A DNA stretch of 64,000 nucleotides from Escherichia coli (lineage in GTDB: Bacteria > Pseudomonadota > Gammaproteobacteria > Enterobacterales > Enterobacteriaceae). The translations under genes were made by a program, and so were the position numbers. The first letter of the stretch is position 1, and every line of letters begins with the position of its first letter. Positions 20,290 to 31,145 of the stretch are shown here, piece after piece. Below the pieces are notes generated by a model. It saw only the letters and a program-made list of their open reading frames with translations, made no database searches and was not told where the DNA came from. The stretch is taken from the NCBI RefSeq assembly GCF_036507355.1, contig NZ_AP027877.1; one strand, written 5' to 3'.

Positions 20290-20440
20290 GCCCCTCCCGA
20301 GGAAGGGGCCATAAATAAGGAAAGGGTCATGATGAAGATACTCATCATCGTGGCGCTCTTAGTGATTAGCTACCCAGCATACTAAGACTACCAGGGCGGG
20401 GGAAACCCCGCTCTACCCTCACTCCTGAAAGTATGCCTTC
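20290..20440 (-). ncRNA. sib: Sib-family antisense sRNA (antitoxin) overlapping ibs copy 1; boundaries approximate
   Basis: By family knowledge Sib RNAs are about 140 nt and fully antisense to ibs; minus-strand hairpin GGCCCCTTCCTCGGGAGGGGC+TTTCCC at 20291-20320 is a candidate terminator. Confidence 0.45.
20329..20385 (+). CDS. ibs: Ibs-family type I toxin peptide (MMKILIIVALLVISYPAY)
   Basis: 18-aa hydrophobic peptide ORF with MMK start and RBS aagg, inside Sib/Ibs repeat unit. Confidence 0.8.
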   Translation: MMKILIIVALLVISYPAY

Positions 20441-20636: not shown

Positions 20637-20648
20637 CCTTAAATAAGG
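20637..20648 (+). repeat. attL core: 12-bp direct repeat CCTTAAATAAGG flanking the island
   Basis: Identical 12-mer at 20637-20648 and 30686-30697; left copy ends the sib half-unit, right copy directly precedes the ibs RBS. Confidence 0.7.
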
Positions 20649-20721
20649 TAAGTTGCACATTTAAAATCTCTTTAATTATCAATAAACTACAATGTATAGG
20701 TCATTATTAGTCAAAATAAAA

Positions 20722-21621
20722 TCATTTGTTGATTTCAATTTTGTCCCATTCTCTCCCTCGGCTATCCCTATACCGCGCCGCCATTGAATCTGATTTATGT
20801 CCGAGAAGACGTTGAGCAAACTTATCGCCAATCTGATTCCGGTATAGCCTCGCCGACAGGCTACGCAGTTCATGGAATGTTGGTGGGTCTCCATCAAATG
20901 AGAGTCCAGATGCATTTCTCGCCTTTGTAAAATACTTCGATACTGTTTTCGGGGAAAGCGGTTCGTGATGCGTTGAGGCGATTATAGTTTCACTGCCGCT
21001 GGCCTCCCTGCATTTCTGTAGTGTATCAGCCAATGAGATATTGAGCGCGTCAATCGTTAGCATCAGCGGAATGGCGAGCTTAGCCCCTGTTTTACCCTGT
21101 TCAATGTGAAGATGGTTGTCGTTTATGTCTGACCATTTCATTCTGCACAAATCGCCGACTCTCTGCCCTGTAACGACAGCCGAATCCATCGCCAGTCTTA
21201 GCCAGATTGGGAGAGGTTCGGCTGCATGGTAAATCGCGACATACTCATTAGCTGTCAGCCTTGAGCGCCTTACTTCTGACTTTGCTGTGCGGGTTGCTGT
21301 TACCGGATTCGTTTCCACATGCCCCTCGGCTATTGCCTCACGAAAAACGTCAACAAGGGTTGACCTGATTAATTTTGCGGAAGCCGCTTTACCTTCTGCT
21401 ACGTAGGTGTTTAGCATTGCTGCCACCTCTTTCGTTGATATGTCAGCGAGCGGTTTGTCCGGCAATTTTCTTCGGATTGCCCTGATTTTGCTGGCGTAGT
21501 CGAGTAGAGTTTTCGTCCTGATCCCCCTCTCGCTGAGGATTGTTTCATATCGGTCAAGCCACGCATGAAGAGTGATTACGTCAGCGCCTTTAATCCTGTC
21601 TATCAGTGAGGTAGCCTGAGT
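20722..21621 (-). pseudogene. int: Tyrosine recombinase (phage integrase), N-terminally truncated
   Basis: Catalytic-domain motifs present (…HELRSLSARLY…LLGHKSDSMAARYRD…); reading frame continues upstream of the annotated start to 21621 (…SLIDRIKGADVITLHAWLDRYETILSERGIRTKTLLDYASKIRAIRRKLPDKPL) and is cut by an IS3-family fragment. Confidence 0.75.
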
Positions 21622-22120
21622 TTAACGGACACTCCTTCCTGAAATAGAATGGCATCAGAAGGAGCTAATAATGAGCAGAAAAACCCAACGTTACTCTAAA
21701 GAGTTCAAAGCCGAAGCTGTCAGAACGGTTCTTGAAAATCAACTTTCGATCAGTGAAGGCGCTTCCCGATTATCTCTTCCTGAAGGCACTTTAGGACAAT
21801 GGGTTACCGCCGCCAGAAAAGGGCTCGGTACTCCTGGTTCCCGCACGGTGGCTGAACTGGAATCTGAAATTCTGCAACTGCGTAAGGCGTTAAATGAAGC
21901 TCGCCTTGAGCGAGATATATTAAAAAAAGCAACGTATTTTGCACAGGAGTCGCTGAAAAATACGCGTTAATCGAACAATGGCGACAACAATTTCCCATTG
22001 AAGCGATGTGTCAGGTATTTGGTGTATCCAGGAGCGGTTATTACAACTGGGTACAGCATGAACCCTCAGACAGAAAACAAAGTGATGAGCGGCTAAAACT
22101 GGAGATTAAGGTGGCACATA
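21610..22120 (+). mobile_element. IS3-family element, 5' fragment only (orfA plus first about 38 codons of orfB)
   Basis: orfA 21671-21970 plus orfB N-terminus MCQVFGVSRSGYYNWVQ... in -1 frame, homology lost after about 22118; boundaries approximate. Confidence 0.6.
21671..21970 (+). CDS. IS3-family transposase OrfA (HTH)
   Basis: 99-aa ORF MSRKTQRYSKEFKAEAVRTVLE...ERDILKKATYFAQE, typical IS3 OrfA with leucine zipper and A-run slippery site near 3' end. Confidence 0.8.
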   Translation: MSRKTQRYSKEFKAEAVRTVLENQLSISEGASRLSLPEGTLGQWVTAARKGLGTPGSRTVAELESEILQLRKALNEARLERDILKKATYFAQESLKNTR

Positions 22121-22149
22121 CGGTAACAAGCCGATACATGCCACACGCA

Positions 22150-22756
22150 TTACTCACCCTCTTTGATGCGAATGCCAGCGGCGCGTGGCACATTAACTTC
22201 CACGATGCGCACTGTTGGTTTGTACATCTCAATCGCTGTCAGCCAGTCAGCTCCTGTCATGCGCTTTTCCGCATCGCCATTAGTCCACTGAACCGGTACA
22301 CCAATAGCCTTCATCGCGATTTCTATTTCCCCGGCAATGGCGCTTTTTCCGCAACCAGTAAAACCAGAAACAACGACAAGAACTTCACCTTTGGCTGGTT
22401 TTATTTCCCGTGCTTCCAGTTCTGCAATGCGCTTACTTCCATCCGCGATTACTCCCTCGTAATATTCACGCTGCTCGTTGAGTTTTGATTTTGCTGCTTC
22501 AAGCTCAACTCTCAGCTTCCCTACCGTTAGCGCAATATCCTCGTTCTCCTGGTCACGGGATTTGATGTATTGCTGGTTTCTTTCCCGTTCATCCAGAAGC
22601 GCCAGCACGGTTGCCGGATTAGCCTTGGCAACAAAATCACGGACTGGCTTACAATCAATCTCAGCAATGGGTTGATACGATGTGTATCCATGCTGTCTTG
22701 TATAACTACCGTGACGAATAACGAAAAAATCACCATTTATTTTTTTAGCCTGCCAC
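22150..22756 (-). pseudogene. Phage-derived protein fragment with P-loop-like motif (GFTGCGKS); 5' end interrupted by IS1
   Basis: Reading frame runs into IS1 terminal bases at 22757; annotated start codon lies inside IS1. Confidence 0.5.
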
Positions 22757-22771
22757 GGTAATGACTCCAAC

Positions 22772-23275
22772 TTATTGATAGTGTTTTATGTTCAGATAAT
22801 GCCCGATGACTTTGTCATGCAGCTCCACCGATTTTGAGAACGACAGCGACTTCCGTCCCAGCCGTGCCAGGTGCTGCCTCAGATTCAGGTTATGCCGCTC
22901 AATTCGCTGCGTATATCGCTTGCTGATTACGTGCAGCTTTCCCTTCAGGCGGGATTCATACAGCGGCCAGCCATCCGTCATCCATATCACCACGTCAAAG
23001 GGTGACAGCAGGCTCATAAGACGCCCCAGCGTCGCCATCGTGCGTTCACCGAATACGTGCGCAACAACCGTCTTCCGGAGCCTGTCATACGCGTAAAACA
23101 GCCAGCGCTGGCGCGATTTAGCCCCGACATAGCCCCACTGTTCGTCCATTTCCGCGCAGACGATGACGTCACTGCCCGGCTGTATGCGCGAGGTTACCGA
23201 CTGCGGCCTGAGTTTTTTAAGTGACGTAAAATCGTGTTGAGGCCAACGCCCATAATGCGGGCTGTTGCCCGGCAT
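22772..23275 (-). CDS. insB: IS1 InsB
   Basis: 167-aa InsB ORF overlapping insA (frameshift fusion partner). Confidence 0.95.
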
Positions 23276-23469
23276 CCAACGCCATTCATGGCCATATCAA
23301 TGATTTTCTGGTGCGTACCGGGTTGAGAAGCGGTGTAAGTGAACTGCAGTTGCCATGTTTTACGGCAGTGAGAGCAGAGATAGCGCTGATGTCCGGCGGT
23401 GCTTTTGCCGTTACGCACCACCCCGTCAGTAGCTGAACAGGAGGGACAGCTGATAGAAACAGAAGCCAC
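23194..23469 (-). CDS. insA: IS1 InsA
   Basis: 91-aa [43 protein letters not shown]... Confidence 0.95.
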
Positions 23470-23548
23470 TGGAGCACCTCAAAAACACCATCATACACTA
23501 AATCAGTAAGTTGGCAGCATCACCGCCTGCCACGGTAATGACTCCAAC

Positions 23549-24052
23549 TTATTGATAGTGTTTTATGTTCAGATAATGCCCGATGACTTTGTCATGCAGC
23601 TCCACCGATTTTGAGAACGACAGCGACTTCCGTCCCAGCCGTGCCAGGTGCTGCCTCAGATTCAGGTTATGCCGCTCAATTCGCTGCGTATATCGCTTGC
23701 TGATTACGTGCAGCTTTCCCTTCAGGCGGGATTCATACAGCGGCCAGCCATCCGTCATCCATATCACCACGTCAAAGGGTGACAGCAGGCTCATAAGACG
23801 CCCCAGCGTCGCCATCGTGCGTTCACCGAATACGTGCGCAACAACCGTCTTCCGGAGCCTGTCATACGCGTAAAACAGCCAGCGCTGGCGCGATTTAGCC
23901 CCGACATAGCCCCACTGTTCGTCCATTTCCGCGCAGACGATGACGTCACTGCCCGGCTGTATGCGCGAGGTTACCGACTGCGGCCTGAGTTTTTTAAGTG
24001 ACGTAAAATCGTGTTGAGGCCAACGCCCATAATGCGGGCTGTTGCCCGGCAT
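23549..24052 (-). CDS. insB: IS1 InsB (copy 2)
   Basis: Identical to copy 1 InsB. Confidence 0.95.
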
Positions 24053-24246
24053 CCAACGCCATTCATGGCCATATCAATGATTTTCTGGTGCGTACCGGGT
24101 TGAGAAGCGGTGTAAGTGAACTGCAGTTGCCATGTTTTACGGCAGTGAGAGCAGAGATAGCGCTGATGTCCGGCGGTGCTTTTGCCGTTACGCACCACCC
24201 CGTCAGTAGCTGAACAGGAGGGACAGCTGATAGAAACAGAAGCCAC
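23971..24246 (-). CDS. insA: IS1 InsA (copy 2)
   Basis: Identical to copy 1 InsA. Confidence 0.95.
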
Positions 24247-24296
24247 TGGAGCACCTCAAAAACACCATCATACACTAAATCAGTAAGTTGGCAGCA

Positions 24297-25112
24297 TCAC
24301 CCTTCCTTGATTCTTTTTTCTTCTGCTATTCTGGCTTGCTCTTTTGCTTCAGCCTCGCGCCGGATTCGTTCAGCCTCCTCCTGTGCTTTTCTGCGTTCTG
24401 CTTCAATTGCTGCCTGCTTTTCTCTTTCAGCTCGTTCTGCTGCCTCTTTTGCTTCGCGCTGTGCTCTCTGCTCGGCTTCAATGCGTTCACGCTCTGCACG
24501 TTCCGCTGCGGCCTTAGCTTCTGCTTCTCGCCTTGCTGCTGCTTCAATTTCGGCTTTTGCCTTTGCTTCGGCTTCAGCTCTGGCTTTCTCTTCAGCTTCT
24601 CTTTTTAAGCGTTCTTCATGCTCTCGCTTTTCCTGCTCCGCTTTGAGTCTTGCCTCTTCTCTTTGGCGGTCAAATTCGCGATCCATCAAAATCGCTATTT
24701 CATGGTCAGACTCAATTTGCTTTGCGAGAGCTTCAGCTGCTGCCTTAGCTTCTTCTTCGGCTTTAATCCGCGCCTGTTCTTCCTCATAATCAGTAAGAGG
24801 CTGGCGCGCCTTGGCTTTCAGTTCATCAAGGCGATCGCGCACTGTCTTGCGGTTGGCATCAATTAGCTTTGGAATTTCCTTCAGTTCAGCAACAAGGTCT
24901 TTGCCAAGACCATCGAGATATGTTTTCGTCTGCGCAACTTTATACGCCAGAGAAGCGATCTCCTTTCTGCCCTTTGCCGTTGTGATATCAGGCACAAAGG
25001 ACATAACTTCACGTTCAACCTTTTGAAGGATTTCTTCAATCTGGTCGGCAGACTGAAATACAGTCATTGCATTTGCTTTTTCAATAACAACTAAATCTGT
25101 TACTTCACTCAT
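24297..25112 (-). CDS. Phage-associated coiled-coil protein with long K/E/A/R-rich repeat region; 3' end abuts IS1, stop codon created at junction
   Basis: ATG with strong RBS ggagga at 25112; low-complexity EAKAKAE/RREAEAK repeats; frame terminates using IS1 terminal bases. Confidence 0.55.
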   Translation of the reverse strand: MSEVTDLVVIEKANAMTVFQSADQIEEILQKVEREVMSFVPDITTAKGRKEIASLAYKVAQTKTYLDGLGKDLVAELKEIPKLIDANRKTVRDRLDELKAKARQPLTDYEEEQARIKAEEEAKAAAEALAKQIESDHEIAILMDREFDRQREEARLKAEQEKREHEERLKREAEEKARAEAEAKAKAEIEAAARREAEAKAAAERAERERIEAEQRAQREAKEAAERAEREKQAAIEAERRKAQEEAERIRREAEAKEQARIAEEKRIKEG

Positions 25113-25246
25113 ATATCCTCCATCAAAAAAATTGCCCTCACATCGGAGGGCAAAGAAGATTTCCAATAATCAGAACAAGTCGGCTCCTGTTTAGTTACGA
25201 GCGACATTGCTCCGTGTATTCACTCGTTGGAATGAATACACAGTGC

Positions 25247-25450
25247 TTATTCGCGAGCTTTGAGCATTGCGTCTGCAAACTTATATGCAGCGCTTGCTGC
25301 ATAATTAACAGCTCCATCAGAATCATTATCGATAATCGATGGATTGCTAATCATTGCTTGCATAGCCTTAGCAGCGAAGTAATCACGTAATGTCGCATCA
25401 CTTGCCATTTCTGGGCGTTTGATATCTGCTTCATAAAACTCGCACATCAT
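25247..25450 (-). CDS. Small hypothetical phage protein (67 aa)
   Basis: ORF with ATGATG start overlapping stop of an upstream fragment; no family assigned. Confidence 0.4.
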   Translation of the reverse strand: MMCEFYEADIKRPEMASDATLRDYFAAKAMQAMISNPSIIDNDSDGAVNYAASAAYKFADAMLKARE

Positions 25451-25617
25451 TCACCTCCCAGAGCCTTGCTGATTGCTGCAAGACCTTTATTAACAGCTCC
25501 ATACCATTCTGGATATGTTGTCGTTGTTCTATTTTTGGATTGCTTAAGTAATAACTGAAGTGCTTCGAGAAGGTCAGGTGCTGCCGCTATTAGATTGGCA
25601 TCTTCAATACATTGAAC
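25451..25617 (-). pseudogene. C-terminal fragment of a phage gene truncated by IS3-family element
   Basis: In-frame coding sequence ...DANLIAAAPDLLEALQLLLKQSKNRTTTTYPEWYGAVNKGLAAISKALGGE with stop overlapping next ATG; upstream continuation replaced by IS end at 25618. Confidence 0.4.
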
Positions 25618-25674
25618 TGAATCGCCACGGGTTTAACAGACACCTCAGAGTCATTTAAGATGGCTTAAAGAGAG

Positions 25675-25959
25675 GTGCCCATGAGCGGTAAGCGTTATCC
25701 CGAAGAGTTTAAAATTGAAGCAGTCAAACAGGTTGTTGATCGCGGTTATTCTGTTGCCAGCGTTGCAACACGTCTCGATATCACCACCCACAGCCTTTAC
25801 GCCTGGATAAAGAAGTACGGTCCGGATTCTTCCGCTAATAAAGAACAGTCAGATGCTCAGGCCGAGATCCGCCGTCTCCAGAAAGAGCTGAAGCGGGTTA
25901 CCGACGAACGGGACATATTAAAAAAAGCCGCGGCGTACTTCGCAAAGCTGTCCGACTGA
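25675..25959 (+). CDS. IS3-family transposase OrfA
   Basis: 94-aa MPMSGKRYPEEFKIEAVKQVV... HTH plus leucine zipper. Confidence 0.85.
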   Translation: MPMSGKRYPEEFKIEAVKQVVDRGYSVASVATRLDITTHSLYAWIKKYGPDSSANKEQSDAQAEIRRLQKELKRVTDERDILKKAAAYFAKLSD

Positions 25960-26015
25960 GGTACGCCTTTATCCGTGACAACACCTGTTGCTGGCCTGTT
26001 CGCCTGCTCTGTCGG

Positions 26016-26828
26016 GTGCTGGATGTTCATCCCAGTGGTTTTTACGCCTGGCTTCAGCAGCCGCATTCACAACGCCATCAGGCAGACCTGAGGCTGACAG
26101 GGCAGATTAAACAGTTCTGGCTGGAATCGGGATGCGTCTATGGTTATCGCAAAATCCATCTGGATCTGCGGGACAGCGGGCAACAGTGCGGAGTGAACAG
26201 AGTCTGGCGACTGATGAAACGTGTCGGGATAAAGGCTCAGGTCGGATACCGGAGCCCGCGGGCACGTAAAGGCGAGGCCAGTATCGTGTCGCCCAACAGG
26301 CTCCAGCGACAGTTCAATCCGGATGCTCCGGATAAGCGTTGGGTAACGGACATAACCTACATCAGGACCCACGAAGGCTGGCTGTATCTTGCCGTGGTTG
26401 TTGATCTGTTCTCACGCAAAATTATCGGCTGGTCCATGCAATCCCGGATGACAAAGGACATTGTCCTGAACGCACTGCTGATGGCTGTATGGCGCCGTAA
26501 TCCCCAAAAACAGGTGCTGGTTCATTCGGATCAGGGCAGTCAGTACACAAGCCATGAGTGGCAGTCGTTCCTGAAATCACACGGCCTGGATGGCAGCATG
26601 AGCCGTCGCGGTAACTGCCATGATAATGCGGTTGCAGAAAGCTTTTTCCAGTTGTTGAAACGCGAACGGATAAAGAAAAAGATCTACGGAACGCGGGAAG
26701 AAGCCCGCAGCGATATTTTTGATTACATCGAAATGTTTTATAACAGTAAGCGTCGGCATGGTTCCAGCGATCAGATGTCACCGACAGAATATGAAAACCA
26801 GTATTATCAACGGCTCGGAAGTGTCTAG
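26016..26828 (+). CDS. IS3-family transposase OrfB (DDE integrase domain); produced as OrfAB via -1 frameshift
   Basis: 270-aa ORF in -1 frame relative to orfA with DDE-type motifs (…WVTDITYI…HSDQGSQYTS…NAVAESFF…); frame continues back to slippery site. Confidence 0.85.
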   Translation: MLDVHPSGFYAWLQQPHSQRHQADLRLTGQIKQFWLESGCVYGYRKIHLDLRDSGQQCGVNRVWRLMKRVGIKAQVGYRSPRARKGEASIVSPNRLQRQFNPDAPDKRWVTDITYIRTHEGWLYLAVVVDLFSRKIIGWSMQSRMTKDIVLNALLMAVWRRNPQKQVLVHSDQGSQYTSHEWQSFLKSHGLDGSMSRRGNCHDNAVAESFFQLLKRERIKKKIYGTREEARSDIFDYIEMFYNSKRRHGSSDQMSPTEYENQYYQRLGSV

Positions 26829-26847
26829 ATTATCCGTGGCGATTCAA

Positions 26848-27236
26848 TATTGGCCTGATAATTGAAATTGATGACTCAGTATTCAATAATGCATCTAAAT
26901 TCGTAGGTGGTGTTGTTATTCTTGATAATCTAGTTTGTGAATGTAAGACCTATCTCAAAAGAATCGCTTTAAGTCGTATTAGCGGAAGTACTTTTGGCGC
27001 ATTCAACGGAACAGGTCTTACAATTAACGGAGCAAGAGAGATTTACATGGTAAACTCTGGTGGTCATTATAGTAATGACAATGCTATTCACTTAATCAAT
27101 GTGCGTAATAGTGTTTTTTCTGGCAGTAGTTTTACTAACGCTGTGAACTCATGTCTTCTTTTAGATGATTGTCACGACTTAACATTTACCAGTGTGAATG
27201 CTGGTTTTGTAGAGGTATACGAATAATGGCCAACAT
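26848..27236 (+). pseudogene. 3' fragment of a tailspike/beta-helix-like phage gene, truncated by the IS3-family element
   Basis: In-frame translation ...GGVVILDNLVCECKTYLKRIALSRISGSTFGAFNGTGLTINGAREIYMVNSGGHYSNDNAIHLINVRNSVFSGSSFTNAVNSCLLLDDCHDLTFTSVNAGFVEVYE* starts at IS boundary with no start codon. Confidence 0.5.
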
Positions 27237-27534
27237 AACCCCAAAGTATGGGTTCAACATATCAACAGGGTGCACAGGTATTATTTTAGTAGGTTGCACC
27301 AGTGCAGGTAATAGTATTGCAAACATAACTGGTGGCGGTTATGTAGATGGTAGCACTAGAGTATTAGCATGTAATGGCATGCCTGATTCAGTTATTGTTC
27401 TCCGTGGGTCTACTGCGGAGCGCCCTACAGCACCAGTCAGTGGGCAGATGTATTATGATACAACGCTAGGTCTTCCAATATGGTATAACGGCACAGCTTC
27501 ATCATGGCAGCGAGCTGATGGAACAAATACTTGA
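27229..27534 (+). CDS. Small tail-fibre-like protein (102 aa), function unknown
   Basis: ATG overlapping stop of preceding fragment (TAATGG); Gly/Thr/Ser-rich; ends near gtr module. Confidence 0.4.
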   Translation, partial: ANITPKYGFNISTGCTGIILVGCTSAGNSIANITGGGYVDGSTRVLACNGMPDSVIVLRGSTAERPTAPVSGQMYYDTTLGLPIWYNGTASSWQRADGTNT

Positions 27535-27579
27535 TTAATTTATGGCGCATCAATATAAAGTATCGATGCGCCATAATAA

Positions 27580-29067
27580 TCACTGACAAATGTTTTTGTC
27601 AAAATCAACTACAATAATATCATCATATGAGTATAAGTTATATTCATATGCTCTTTTAATCTTTGCGGTTGAGCAAAAGGTTTTTTCATTTAACACACTT
27701 GCAATGTTTGTATTCCCAGGGTGTTTAAAGTAAACTCCAACTCTATTCATATAAGGGAATGGCCAATCCCAATTATAGAAATACTCTGGGAAAAATCTAG
27801 ATATTAACGGGTAATTATTTCGTGCGTTTACAAAAACATCATTGTCTTTCTTTTTACCATTAAAAATAAGTATCTGATTTGTTTTTCCGCTTAACTCGAA
27901 AGCATCATTTTTAATCTGATGAAACAGAACTGTGGTTATGTTTTTTTCTTCTGTCATTGCATTTGTGTATGAACATAAAAAACCAAAAACATAAATCAGA
28001 GGAATTACAAGTATATATGTTATTGAATTTTTTGTTTCTCGCGAGAAAAGATAAACAATCATGAATAAGAACAACATCGTAGCAGAAAAACCGATCATCA
28101 CTCTTGGGGCGTCGATGTGATGCTGAAGTGGTAATAGAGTAGCAAAAGACAATATCAAAGCTGTTACTGGCGATGTTATTGTAATTAAAAAATTAATAAT
28201 ACCAGTAATACTTTTATTAGGTATTAATTTCTTTAGCGCGATAAATGTCGTCATTGCAATGAAAAATAAAAATATTACTATAAACGCAACTCGTCCTGAT
28301 TCCCCAAAAATACCACTAGATATTGAATGAAGATAAAATTTTAAGTTTTCATATATAACTGAAAAAATGCCTTCAGTTTTAATTGATGGGTGATCCGGGT
28401 CCCCAACAACAGTTAAAAATAAAGGAATAACCACCAAAAAATATAATGCAACACCTATAACTAATGATACCGTCTTTTCTATGAGGTAAGTTAATAGATG
28501 TCTGTTACTATCTGAGTTAAAGTACATGTAAACATATTTACACAGAATAATAACCAGCATGAAATTTAATGATGCTTGGTATATAGACAATATAAATAAT
28601 GTTAACAGGGCGGCAAAAGAAATATTTAAAATTGTCTTTTTGAAATTAAATATTACAACTGAGAATGACAATGCAATACTCATGAACATCGGTAAAACAT
28701 CAAAGCGATACATTGCATTTTCAATTAAAAATGGGCTTGATAAAATACCAAGAGGAACCAACAGTCCAATAAATTTATTATCTGTCGATATAAACATCCT
28801 GCTAAAAAAATACAGGCAAACAGATATCAAAAATACTGATAATATTGCAGGAAATGGGAATAAGTCCGTTATGTGCATGTTGAAATTCAATGCAATCATC
28901 AACATTTCAGCCAAAGGTCTACCATCCCTAGCCCATCCAGTATACCCCCATATAGCTCTTCCCTGATCATCTACATAATGAATATTTGCCATGATGATGG
29001 GGGTGAAATATATAAAAACAGATATCAAGAACCAATGGAAAGGTGTTTTGTTTTTATTTGCAATCAT
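27580..29067 (-). CDS. GtrC-like type-specific O-antigen glucosyltransferase (polytopic membrane protein)
   Basis: 495-aa ORF, multiple TM helices, strongly AT-rich, immediately downstream of gtrB with overlapping stop/start. Confidence 0.7.
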
Positions 29068-29983
29068 TTTTCTGATCCTTTAAAACATATCTTGGGCGCT
29101 GCTTAACTTCAATATAAATACGTCCTATGTACTCTCCAAGTACACCAATACCAATTAGTTGTACGCCGCCAAGAAACAATATTGATACAAGAATTGAAGG
29201 GTATCCAGGTACATTATTACCAAAAATCAATTTATCAATTATCATCCATGAACCGTATGTAAATGATATACATGCAATAAATAACCCAATATAGGTCCAC
29301 ATGCGAAGCGGGAAAGTAGAAAAGCTAGTGATCCCTTCCAGCGCCAAGTTCCATAGCTTCCATCCATTGAACTTTGTGCTTCCTGCAACGCGTTCTGCTC
29401 GCGCATATTCTACGACATCGGTTCGACCACCAACCCAGCTCAGCACACCCTTCATAAACAGGTTTCGTTCTGGCATGAGCTTAATGTTTTCTACTACTTC
29501 GCGAGACATGAGCCGGAAGTCGCCAACATTCTCTTCTATCTGAGGGTTGCTGATTTTGTTATGAAGTTTATAGAACCACTCAGCAGATTTACGCTTCAGC
29601 CTGCTGTCAGTGGAGCGGTCAGAGCGTTTAGCCAGAACCATATCTGCACCGGCCTGCCATTTCTCTATCAAGTGAGGAATAACTTCGATAGGGTCTTGCA
29701 GATCAACGTCAATCGGGATAATTGCCTCCCCGGTAGCATGGTCCAGACCTGCGAACAGGGCGGGTTCTTTGCCGAAGTTACGTGTGAACGACAGCGAAAC
29801 CACAAGCGGGTCGGCAACAGCAAGCTCGTTGATAATTGATTCTGTAGCGTCTTTGCTGCCATCGTTTATGAAGACTATCTCGACTTCATGCTGCTGAAGC
29901 CCTTCAAATTCGCGCACGGTTTTATAAAAAATAGGTATCGTGGCCTCTTCGTTAAAGACCGGAACGACTAAAGAAATTTTCAT
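29054..29983 (-). CDS. gtrB: GtrB bactoprenol glucosyltransferase (GT2 family)
   Basis: 309-aa [16 protein letters not shown]...[10 protein letters not shown]...C-terminal TM helices; matches conserved GtrB. Confidence 0.9.
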
Positions 29984-30342
29984 TTCGCATCCCTAAAGAC
30001 AATGAACTTTGAATAGATGAAACCGCACACCAGGCTGATGGCGGAGAAGGTGACAAGAGTTATCATCGGGGGAAGTGCGCATCTATCAGCAGCCCATCCA
30101 ACAGTAGCACTGAGTGTTCCCATGAACCCGACATATAACATGTAGCGCATCGTTGTAGTTGATGCTTTGAATGTGAATTTTGCATTCGCGAAGAAGCTAA
30201 AACTCACAGCCACAACGAAACCTGCGAAGTTTGCCAGAGCCTGATTGGTATGCGCGGCATAGATACATACACCAAAAACCACCCAGTGTATAAGTGTGTT
30301 CAGCACACCAATCGAGGTGTACCTTGCAAATATATTTAACAT
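29980..30342 (-). CDS. gtrA: GtrA flippase (small 4-TM protein)
   Basis: 120-aa [31 protein letters not shown]...; overlaps gtrB start. Confidence 0.9.
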
Positions 30343-30685
30343 TTATTTAATCAATGAGTTCTGAAAGGTATGAAGTCTATCATCCAAGTCTCAATCGATC
30401 GATACTTGCGGTAGTTGATGAGGAAAACTCTGGTACACAAAGCTTTGCACTGGACTGCAAGGTGTTGTGCTTCTCTGGAGTGCGACATGTTTGATAACAA
30501 AAAATTAGCGCAAGAAGACAAAAAATCACCTTGCGCTAATGCTCTGTTACAGGTCACTAATACCATCTAAGTGGTTGATTCATAGTGACTGGATATGTTG
30601 TGTTTTGTCGCATTTTGCAGTCTATTATTTAACCGCGAATTCGTGTAATGCGATGATTTTTAAGTGATTAATATTATTTTGTCAT

Positions 30686-30697
30686 CCTTAAATAAGG
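30686..30697 (+). repeat. attR core: 12-bp direct repeat CCTTAAATAAGG
   Basis: Identical to 20637-20648; followed by aaagggtcATGATG of ibs. Confidence 0.7.
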
Positions 30698-30705
30698 AAA
30701 GGGTC

Positions 30706-30762
30706 ATGATGAAGTGGATCATCATCGTGGTGCTCTTAGTCATAAGCTTCCCGGCTTACTAA
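30706..30762 (+). CDS. ibs: Ibs-family type I toxin peptide (MMKWIIIVVLLVISFPAY), right half of the unit split by the island
   Basis: 18-aa hydrophobic ORF; upstream repeat-unit sequence replaced by island DNA. Confidence 0.75.
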   Translation: MMKWIIIVVLLVISFPAY

Positions 30763-30994
30763 GACTACCAGGGCGGGGGAAACCCCGCTCTACCCTCACT
30801 CCTGAAAGTATGCCTTCACGATAAGATTGTCAATCTGCAGGCTTTGCAGTCTGCGATCCTGCCAGCAAATATTCTTTGCGAGTCGTTACGCAATAATCAC
30901 AGAGGGAACTATTTTGTTCACGCGTTAGCGATAGACTGCATTCAGGGCGAAAGGAGGTAAGCCGACGATTTCAGCGGGACGCTGAAACGGGGAA

Positions 30995-31145
30995 CCCTCT
31001 CCCGGAGAAGAGGGCTTTTAATAAGGAAAGGGTTATGATGAAGCACGTCATCATACTGGTGATACTCTTAGTGATTAGCTTCCAGGCTTACTAAGAACAC
31101 CAGGGGGAGGGGGAAACCTCTCCCTAACCCTCACTCCTGAAATTA
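30995..31145 (-). ncRNA. sib: Sib-family antisense sRNA overlapping ibs copy 3; boundaries approximate
   Basis: Same unit architecture as 20290-20440, with hairpin gggaaccctctcccggagaagagggc upstream of the ibs RBS. Confidence 0.4.
31035..31094 (+). CDS. ibs: Ibs-family type I toxin peptide (MMKHVIILVILLVISFQAY)
   Basis: 19-aa hydrophobic ORF within complete repeat unit 3. Confidence 0.8.
   Translation: MMKHVIILVILLVISFQAY

Follow-up and report, generated by a model that had tools for sequence, protein, structure and literature searches.

The gtr promoter in the attR region of a decayed Escherichia coli lambdoid prophage lacks the P22-type Dam/OxyR switch signature

The gtrABC operon in the window (the whole 64,000-bp stretch of Escherichia coli DNA analyzed) is preceded by a core promoter of the kind found in phage P22, and all other sequence features that define the Dam/OxyR phase-variation switch are missing. 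The claim in the earlier note that no obvious Dam/OxyR switch lies upstream of gtrA is thereby borne out. Its further claim, that this copy is probably not phase-variable by that mechanism, is supported by the absence of the signature together with matching experimental precedents in Salmonella. The promoter is of an ordinary, already documented non-phase-variable type that is embedded in a prophage attR. Judging from its sequence and by analogy with these precedents, it is very likely that the operon would be transcribed uniformly from an extended -10 sigma-70 promoter insulated by the tI terminator, with no heritable ON/OFF state.

The single GATC and the core promoter

Because gtrA is on the minus strand (30342..29980), positions 30343-30685 constitute its upstream interval. 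A scan of this interval found exactly one GATC, at 30397-30400, and a recount gave the same result, in agreement with the single site in about 340 bp that had been reported earlier. The nearest GATCs past the interval are located at 30717 (within an ibs ORF) and 30855. The density in the window (244 sites per 64,000 bp) does not differ from that of shuffled sequence, and 1.31 sites are expected in 343 bp (Poisson P(<=1) = 0.62). The count of one is by itself uninformative, since chance predicts about as many. The GATCs of P22 are at -135, -122, -71, and -58 from the gtrA ATG, and the window GATC is at -58, equal to the offset of P22 GATC-4. In this comparison it is the position of the lone GATC, not the count, that carries the information, and by homology the site is the conserved -35 counterpart of GATC-4 rather than a random site. 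A pairing of the window GATC with P22 GATC-3, obtained by affine-gap pairwise alignment, was rejected because in the ungapped register the -35, the -10, and the ATG distance all agree.

The features assigned to the core promoter are as follows.

30397..30402, minus strand: -35 hexamer TCGATC, which holds the sole GATC; homolog of P22 GATC-4 at the same offset in the MAFFT alignment
30374..30382, minus strand: extended -10 TGaTAGACT (P22: TGcTACACT), assigned by homology; fits the P22 transcription start 33 nt downstream of GATC-4
30367, minus strand: predicted gtr transcription start, from homology with the mapped P22 start
30370..30407 (-65..-28), minus strand: most conserved upstream block (core promoter footprint), with 98% mean identity among 48 sequences

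Relative to the mapped P22 start, GATC-1 to GATC-4 are located at -110, -97, -46, and -33 (Broadbent et al., 2010, PMC2909390), and the -35 encompasses GATC-4 (Davies et al., 2013, PMC3688519). Given that P22 GATC-4 is at -33 from the start and -58 from the ATG, the start in the window would be at -25 from the ATG. As in P22 gtr, the window has a -35 TCGATC overlapping GATC-4 and a conserved extended -10 of the form TGnTAnACT at the same offsets, and on alignment this core promoter is homologous to the P22 gtr promoter. The conservation was calculated from an alignment of the window and 47 related upstream regions drawn from 80 viral contigs (48 sequences), in which the first 30 nt of gtrA have 89% identity and the flanks have 54-82%. 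Among the 72 related viral loci that have the core promoter, 71 keep the -35 GATC, and the exception has the SfV-type TCGACC. Identical copies of the gtrA-proximal 110 nt are present in at least 12 viral contigs. The promoter is assigned from this homology and conservation, and we infer its start and activity from the experiments in P22 and Salmonella.

A generic sigma-70 scan gave no match at the proposed gtr promoter (7/12 hexamer matches), because the hexamers are too degenerate and the extended -10 is outside its model. The one promoter-like scan match, at 30685..30656 (minus strand), falls within the AT-rich P arm on the upstream side of tI and was attributed to chance (1 found versus 2.5 expected). 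The lone GATC is also within a perfect 10-bp palindrome, ATCGATCGAT (30394-30403), that overlaps the -35; either ATCGATCGAT or ATCGATCAAT is common to most relatives.

Missing OxyR half-sites and paired GATCs

The Dam/OxyR phase-variation switch is known from P22 gtr and from Salmonella gtr families I-III (PMC2909390). Its signature includes four GATCs arranged as two pairs (at -110/-97 and -46/-33 relative to the transcription start, with paired sites 13 bp apart start-to-start) and three OxyR half-sites, A, B, and C, that form alternative AB and BC sites. Neither arrangement is found upstream of gtrA in the window. Counterparts of GATC-1, GATC-2, and GATC-3 are absent upstream of the window gtrA, and the whole 64-kb window contains no GATC-N9-GATC and no P22-type four-GATC signature. 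None of 80 related viral loci has the P22-type signature, and the P22 positive control scored positive.

Half-sites were scored out of 10 against the OxyR consensus ATAGnTnnnAnCTAT, with a spacing of 32 nt. In the P22 register, the A, B, and C positions of the window score 4, 4, and 6, compared with 8, 10, and 8 in P22, and the best in-register triple scores 14, compared with 26. The best half-site pair in the interval reaches 12/20, whereas the AB and BC sites of P22 both score 18/20. Half-site C is represented by a remnant.

30398..30412, minus strand: degenerate OxyR(C) half-site remnant ACCGCAAGTATCGAT, 6/10 versus 8/10 in P22, with TACC in place of GATC-3

Unlike P22, the window thus lacks GATC-1, GATC-2, and GATC-3 as well as half-sites A and B, and its C is degraded. 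The scan of half-sites and GATC spacing that the earlier note had proposed as a check is therefore in line with what it had claimed. In a window-wide scan for three half-sites, the top candidate of the region scored 16; it is out of the P22 register, is driven by the C-remnant and the ATAG of the -10, and was rejected as a switch.

The 12/20 pair consists of the C-remnant and the -10 region at 32-nt spacing and ranks in the top 0.1% of the window. Homology with the P22 promoter accounts for this score, although weak binding may still be conceivable given how degenerate the OxyR motif is. A reduced switch similar to that of agn43 could be built on this pair, with OxyR at the two half-sites acting against methylation of the single -35 GATC and producing ON/OFF states without A and B. 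The location of this highly conserved GATC inside both the C-remnant and the -35 would be compatible with such a device. However, the pair is well below those of P22, and the B half-site required for the repressing BC site scores just 4/10. Moreover, the Salmonella operon SCB67_I, with a promoter pared down to the -10 and the GATC-4-bearing -35, did not phase-vary (PMC3688519), and a BC-only construct of P22 was locked OFF and did not switch (PMC2909390). The agn43 (flu) gene itself shares with the window a GATC near the promoter and OxyR as a candidate factor, but its three GATCs all fall inside one strong OxyR tetramer site that lies downstream of the promoter, whereas the window has one GATC and no credible full site. 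A reduced switch of this type is considered very improbable.

The upstream regions of P22, SfII, SfV, the E. coli phage HF4s, and one E. coli chromosome with the same layout were compared with the window using MAFFT. The core promoter is common to all, whereas the P22 upstream module is not shared by the window. Approximately 80 bp of P22 DNA between a sib-like block and the core promoter have no counterpart in the window, and in P22 this extra block carries half-sites A and B and GATC-1 to GATC-3. These patterns suggest that the OxyR/GATC module was inserted, or deleted, between the sib-like element and the core promoter that P22 and the window have in common. The P22 sib-like block (about -205..-155 from gtrA) is related to the lambda-like sib-distal hairpin (TGCAAAGCCTTGCAAACCGATGCAAAG; window 30420-30464) and sits about 80 bp farther from gtrA than the window block. 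The proximal ~110 nt of the window align throughout with SfII, SfV, and HF4s, which have an identical -10 block and the same int-attP-gtrA layout; P22 gtr likewise adjoins attP and lies downstream of int. The -35 GATC is present in SfII and HF4s, whereas SfV has TCGACC and hence no GATC. The att arms and integrases of these three phages are of the P22/SfV type, unlike those of the window, which are of the HK022/lambda type.

A switch located farther upstream, as the earlier note had considered, is ruled out because the attR core (30686-30697) marks the limit of the phage DNA, beyond which (past 30697) there is host ibs/sib DNA. With no P22 module present, OxyR would lack paired alternative methylation-sensitive sites, and no heritable ON/OFF methylation pattern would be expected. 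Phase variation may also arise from slipped-strand pairing at repeats, inversion of the promoter, or a different regulator that is sensitive to methylation. In 27580-30705, however, homopolymers are at most 7 nt long and tandem repeats (unit of 2-8, at least four copies) are absent. Apart from the tI hairpin, there is no inverted repeat close to the promoter, and the promoter is not flanked by one. No positive evidence for such mechanisms was found, and their involvement appears scarcely credible.

Among the gtr operons of Salmonella, 16 of 59 lack the signature (PMC3688519). The gtr operon LT2_II has one GATC and no OxyR site, and phase variation was absent when tested (PMC2909390). Phase variation was also absent in gtr SCB67_I, where just the -10 and a -35 holding GATC-4 are left (PMC3688519); as published, these retained elements are exactly those of the window. 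Promoters of this non-phase-variable class gave uniform reporter expression (PMC2909390, PMC3688519). By its sequence, the window promoter falls into the same class (one or two GATCs at most and no OxyR motifs, whether or not the conserved -35 and -10 are kept). It resembles LT2_II, all of the GtrC family IV operons, and SCB67_I in having one GATC, or only GATC-4, and no recognizable OxyR sites, but it differs from them in host genus and GtrC family.

The attR end of the prophage and its ibs/sib insertion site

By homology, positions 30343-30697 represent one end (attR) of a decayed lambdoid prophage (approximately 20637-30697) that carries gtrABC as lysogenic-conversion cargo. The remnant spans about 10 kb between two 12-bp cores, and its interior (20700-27580) is badly degraded. 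The features of the remnant and its host junction are as follows.

20637..20648: attL core CCTTAAATAAGG; an HK022-like P' arm and the truncated integrase gene come next
20722-21465, minus strand: truncated integrase gene with the N-terminal arm-binding part missing (PF00589, PF22022, PF02899)
22150-22770: Ead/Ea22-like ORF
22772-23275 and 23549-24052: transposase ORFs of two identical IS1 copies, 777 bp apart
26016-26828: IS3-family transposase ORF
27169-27534: tail-fibre C-terminal fragment
30431..30497, minus strand: lambda-like sib region (distal part) with a hairpin at 30436-30470 (lambda identity, alignment, and fold)
30498..30540, minus strand (gtr strand): tI-type rho-independent terminator, with the hairpin at 30540..30504 and the U-run at 30503..30498
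30545..30596, plus strand: Int arm-type sites P1 AGGTCACTAAT and P2 ATAGTGACTG of the attP P arm, mapped from lambda 'int 1' and 'int 2'
30686..30697: attR core CCTTAAATAAGG, the phage/host junction at which HK022 attP homology ends and ibs/sib begins
30691..30833, minus strand: host Sib antisense RNA gene (Rfam RF00113, 140 bits, E=5e-30; K-12 sibB/ibsB annotation)
30706-30762, plus strand: ibs toxin ORF, overlapped by the Sib gene

The segment 30431-30631 has 91% identity to lambda 27470-27669, which spans the annotated Int sites 1 and 2, and 30497-30689 has 93% identity to the HK022 'sib transcription processing site' and attP. The components of a lambda/HK022-type attachment site (arm sites, sib/tI, and a repeated core near int) are all present. 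As in the P arms of lambda and HK022, the tI hairpin and the arm sites P1 and P2 are conserved; unlike in those phages, the core is CCTTAAATAAGG and attB is inside an ibs/sib repeat. The tI element has a strong hairpin and a U6 tract, with an RNA fold of -46.2 kcal/mol (z=-3.85; 146-nt region), and its inverted repeat was found as well. A generic terminator scan gave no match at tI because the loop exceeds 8 nt. According to these alignments, most of the 30343-30685 interval is an att site and not a promoter, with about 110 bp that are gtr-specific. The '340 bp promoter region' of the earlier note was thus loosely drawn, as 30431-30697 consists of phage sib/tI, the attP P arm, and the attR core.

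The prophage sits inside one copy of an ibs/sib type I toxin-antitoxin repeat. The crossover is between the Sib terminator hairpin, which is now at attL, and the Shine-Dalgarno sequence and ATG of ibs, which are at attR; the attL core is preceded by host Sib-terminator sequence, and the ibs ORF at 30706-30762 has lost its native upstream region. Between mdtA and yegL, the window has ibs/sib units with three ibs toxin ORFs (20329-20385, 30706-30762, and 31036-31095). In comparison, K-12 MG1655 has two (ibsA and ibsB). An equivalent Sib-core-P' arm-integrase junction is found in 84 of 5,426 complete E. coli genomes. A literature search for ibs/sib as a prophage integration site returned only irrelevant papers, and no description of this attB was found.

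Since the copy of Sib at attR (minus strand, 30833 to 30691) is left without its terminator, its transcript should run on for about 190 nt to tI, and a Sib-to-tI chimeric RNA of about 336 nt is predicted. Read-through from the host Sib promoter past tI may then partly drive or modulate gtr expression. Sib is transcribed toward gtrA, the terminator hairpin of K-12 Sib is beyond the crossover point, and a strong terminator is absent ahead of tI. However, the tI hairpin is strong and has its U6 tract, and the sib structure would send read-through RNA to processing. In addition, the gtr promoter is intact and identical to those of many phages integrated elsewhere, and read-through would alter only the level of expression without making a switch. 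A contribution of this kind is rather unlikely; instead, the upstream tI terminator would insulate gtr from host Sib transcription.

The gtrABC operon and its predicted expression

The operon consists of three ORFs, each of which is full length.

29980..30342, minus strand: gtrA, 120 aa, bactoprenol-glucose flippase; PF04138 (GtrA_DPMS_TM), E=2e-13
29054..29983, minus strand: gtrB, 309 aa, bactoprenol glucosyltransferase (GT2); PF00535 (Glycos_transf_2), E=3e-30
27580..29067, minus strand: gtrC, 495 aa, serotype-specific glucosyltransferase of a rare family; PF14264 (Glucos_trans_II), E=5e-27

The order of GtrA (PF04138), GtrB (GT2), and a GtrC-type protein (PF14264) next to an att site, with the genes overlapping or adjacent, is that of an O-antigen glucosylation operon of temperate phages, and attR is 344 bp upstream of the operon. 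GtrA of the window has 77-94% identity to phage GtrA proteins (77.5% amino acid identity to that of P22). GtrC is a near-orphan encoded by an AT-rich gene. It has one close cluster at 90% identity (373 sequences), in which, among the members listed, the named ones are from E. coli except for one Salmonella entry. The next relatives beyond this cluster have 25-28% identity and are from uncultured or metagenomic sources.

Copies of the operon and promoter with 99.2% identity are present in 33-34 complete E. coli genomes, and in the E. coli copy with this identity the sole upstream GATC is likewise at -58. In these genomes, the module of gtrABC, promoter, sib, and P1/P2 (window 27580-30631) is located at the lambda attB side, as part of a prophage that carries baseplate genes. 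One example is E. coli CFSAN061770, in which the module adjoins ybhB-bioA. The homology at the lambda attB side stops about 55 bp short of the core. These copies indicate that the cargo/P-arm module is mosaic and has been joined to differing att cores and integrases.

The state of the prophage raises the possibility that gtrABC is a silent relic, for which regulation would be moot. Only about 10 kb are left, with two IS1 copies, an IS3-family element, a truncated integrase gene, and tail-fibre fragments. Silence of the operon is, however, difficult to reconcile with the full-length gtr ORFs, with the near-identity of the operon and promoter across the E. coli genomes above, or with the identity of the proximal 110 nt among viral contigs, and a silent relic seems quite improbable.

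In the gtr direction (minus strand), the order is host ibs/sib, the attR core, the HK022/lambda-type P arm with its Int arm sites, and tI (30540..30498). These are followed by a spacer of about 90 bp, the -35 (30402..30397), the -10 (30382..30374), a predicted start at about 30367, and the gtrA ATG at 30342. Most likely, the sigma-70 extended -10 promoter would be unregulated. Alternatively, the retained -35 GATC may work on its own, with Dam methylation tuning promoter strength and the Sib-to-tI transcript adding host input. This proposal is based on the retention of the GATC in 71 of the 72 E. coli and Shigella gtr promoters compared even though the rest of the Dam/OxyR switch is gone, and on the intrinsic P22 promoter being weaker in a dam mutant (PMC2909390). 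Such tuning might depend on the transient hemimethylated state that follows replication or on Dam levels. If true, gtr expression would be coupled to methylation and possibly heterogeneous without OxyR. There is an outside chance of such tuning, and uniform transcription without a switch is the preferred explanation.

Although the wider importance of this locus is small, the comparisons indicate that the E. coli/Shigella clade of gtr promoters is uniformly without the Salmonella-type epigenetic switch while the core promoter is conserved. This agrees with published remarks that S. flexneri gtr operons are not known to phase-vary, evidence of phase variation being lacking according to the authors (PMC3688519). 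Two side observations, the location of a prophage att site within a type I toxin-antitoxin repeat and the rarity of the GtrC family, are of mild interest for mobile-element biology. For annotators, O-antigen glucosylation by this operon would be expected to be uniform rather than confined to a phase-variable subpopulation, which may bear on serotyping, phage resistance, and vaccine-antigen stability in the strains that carry it.
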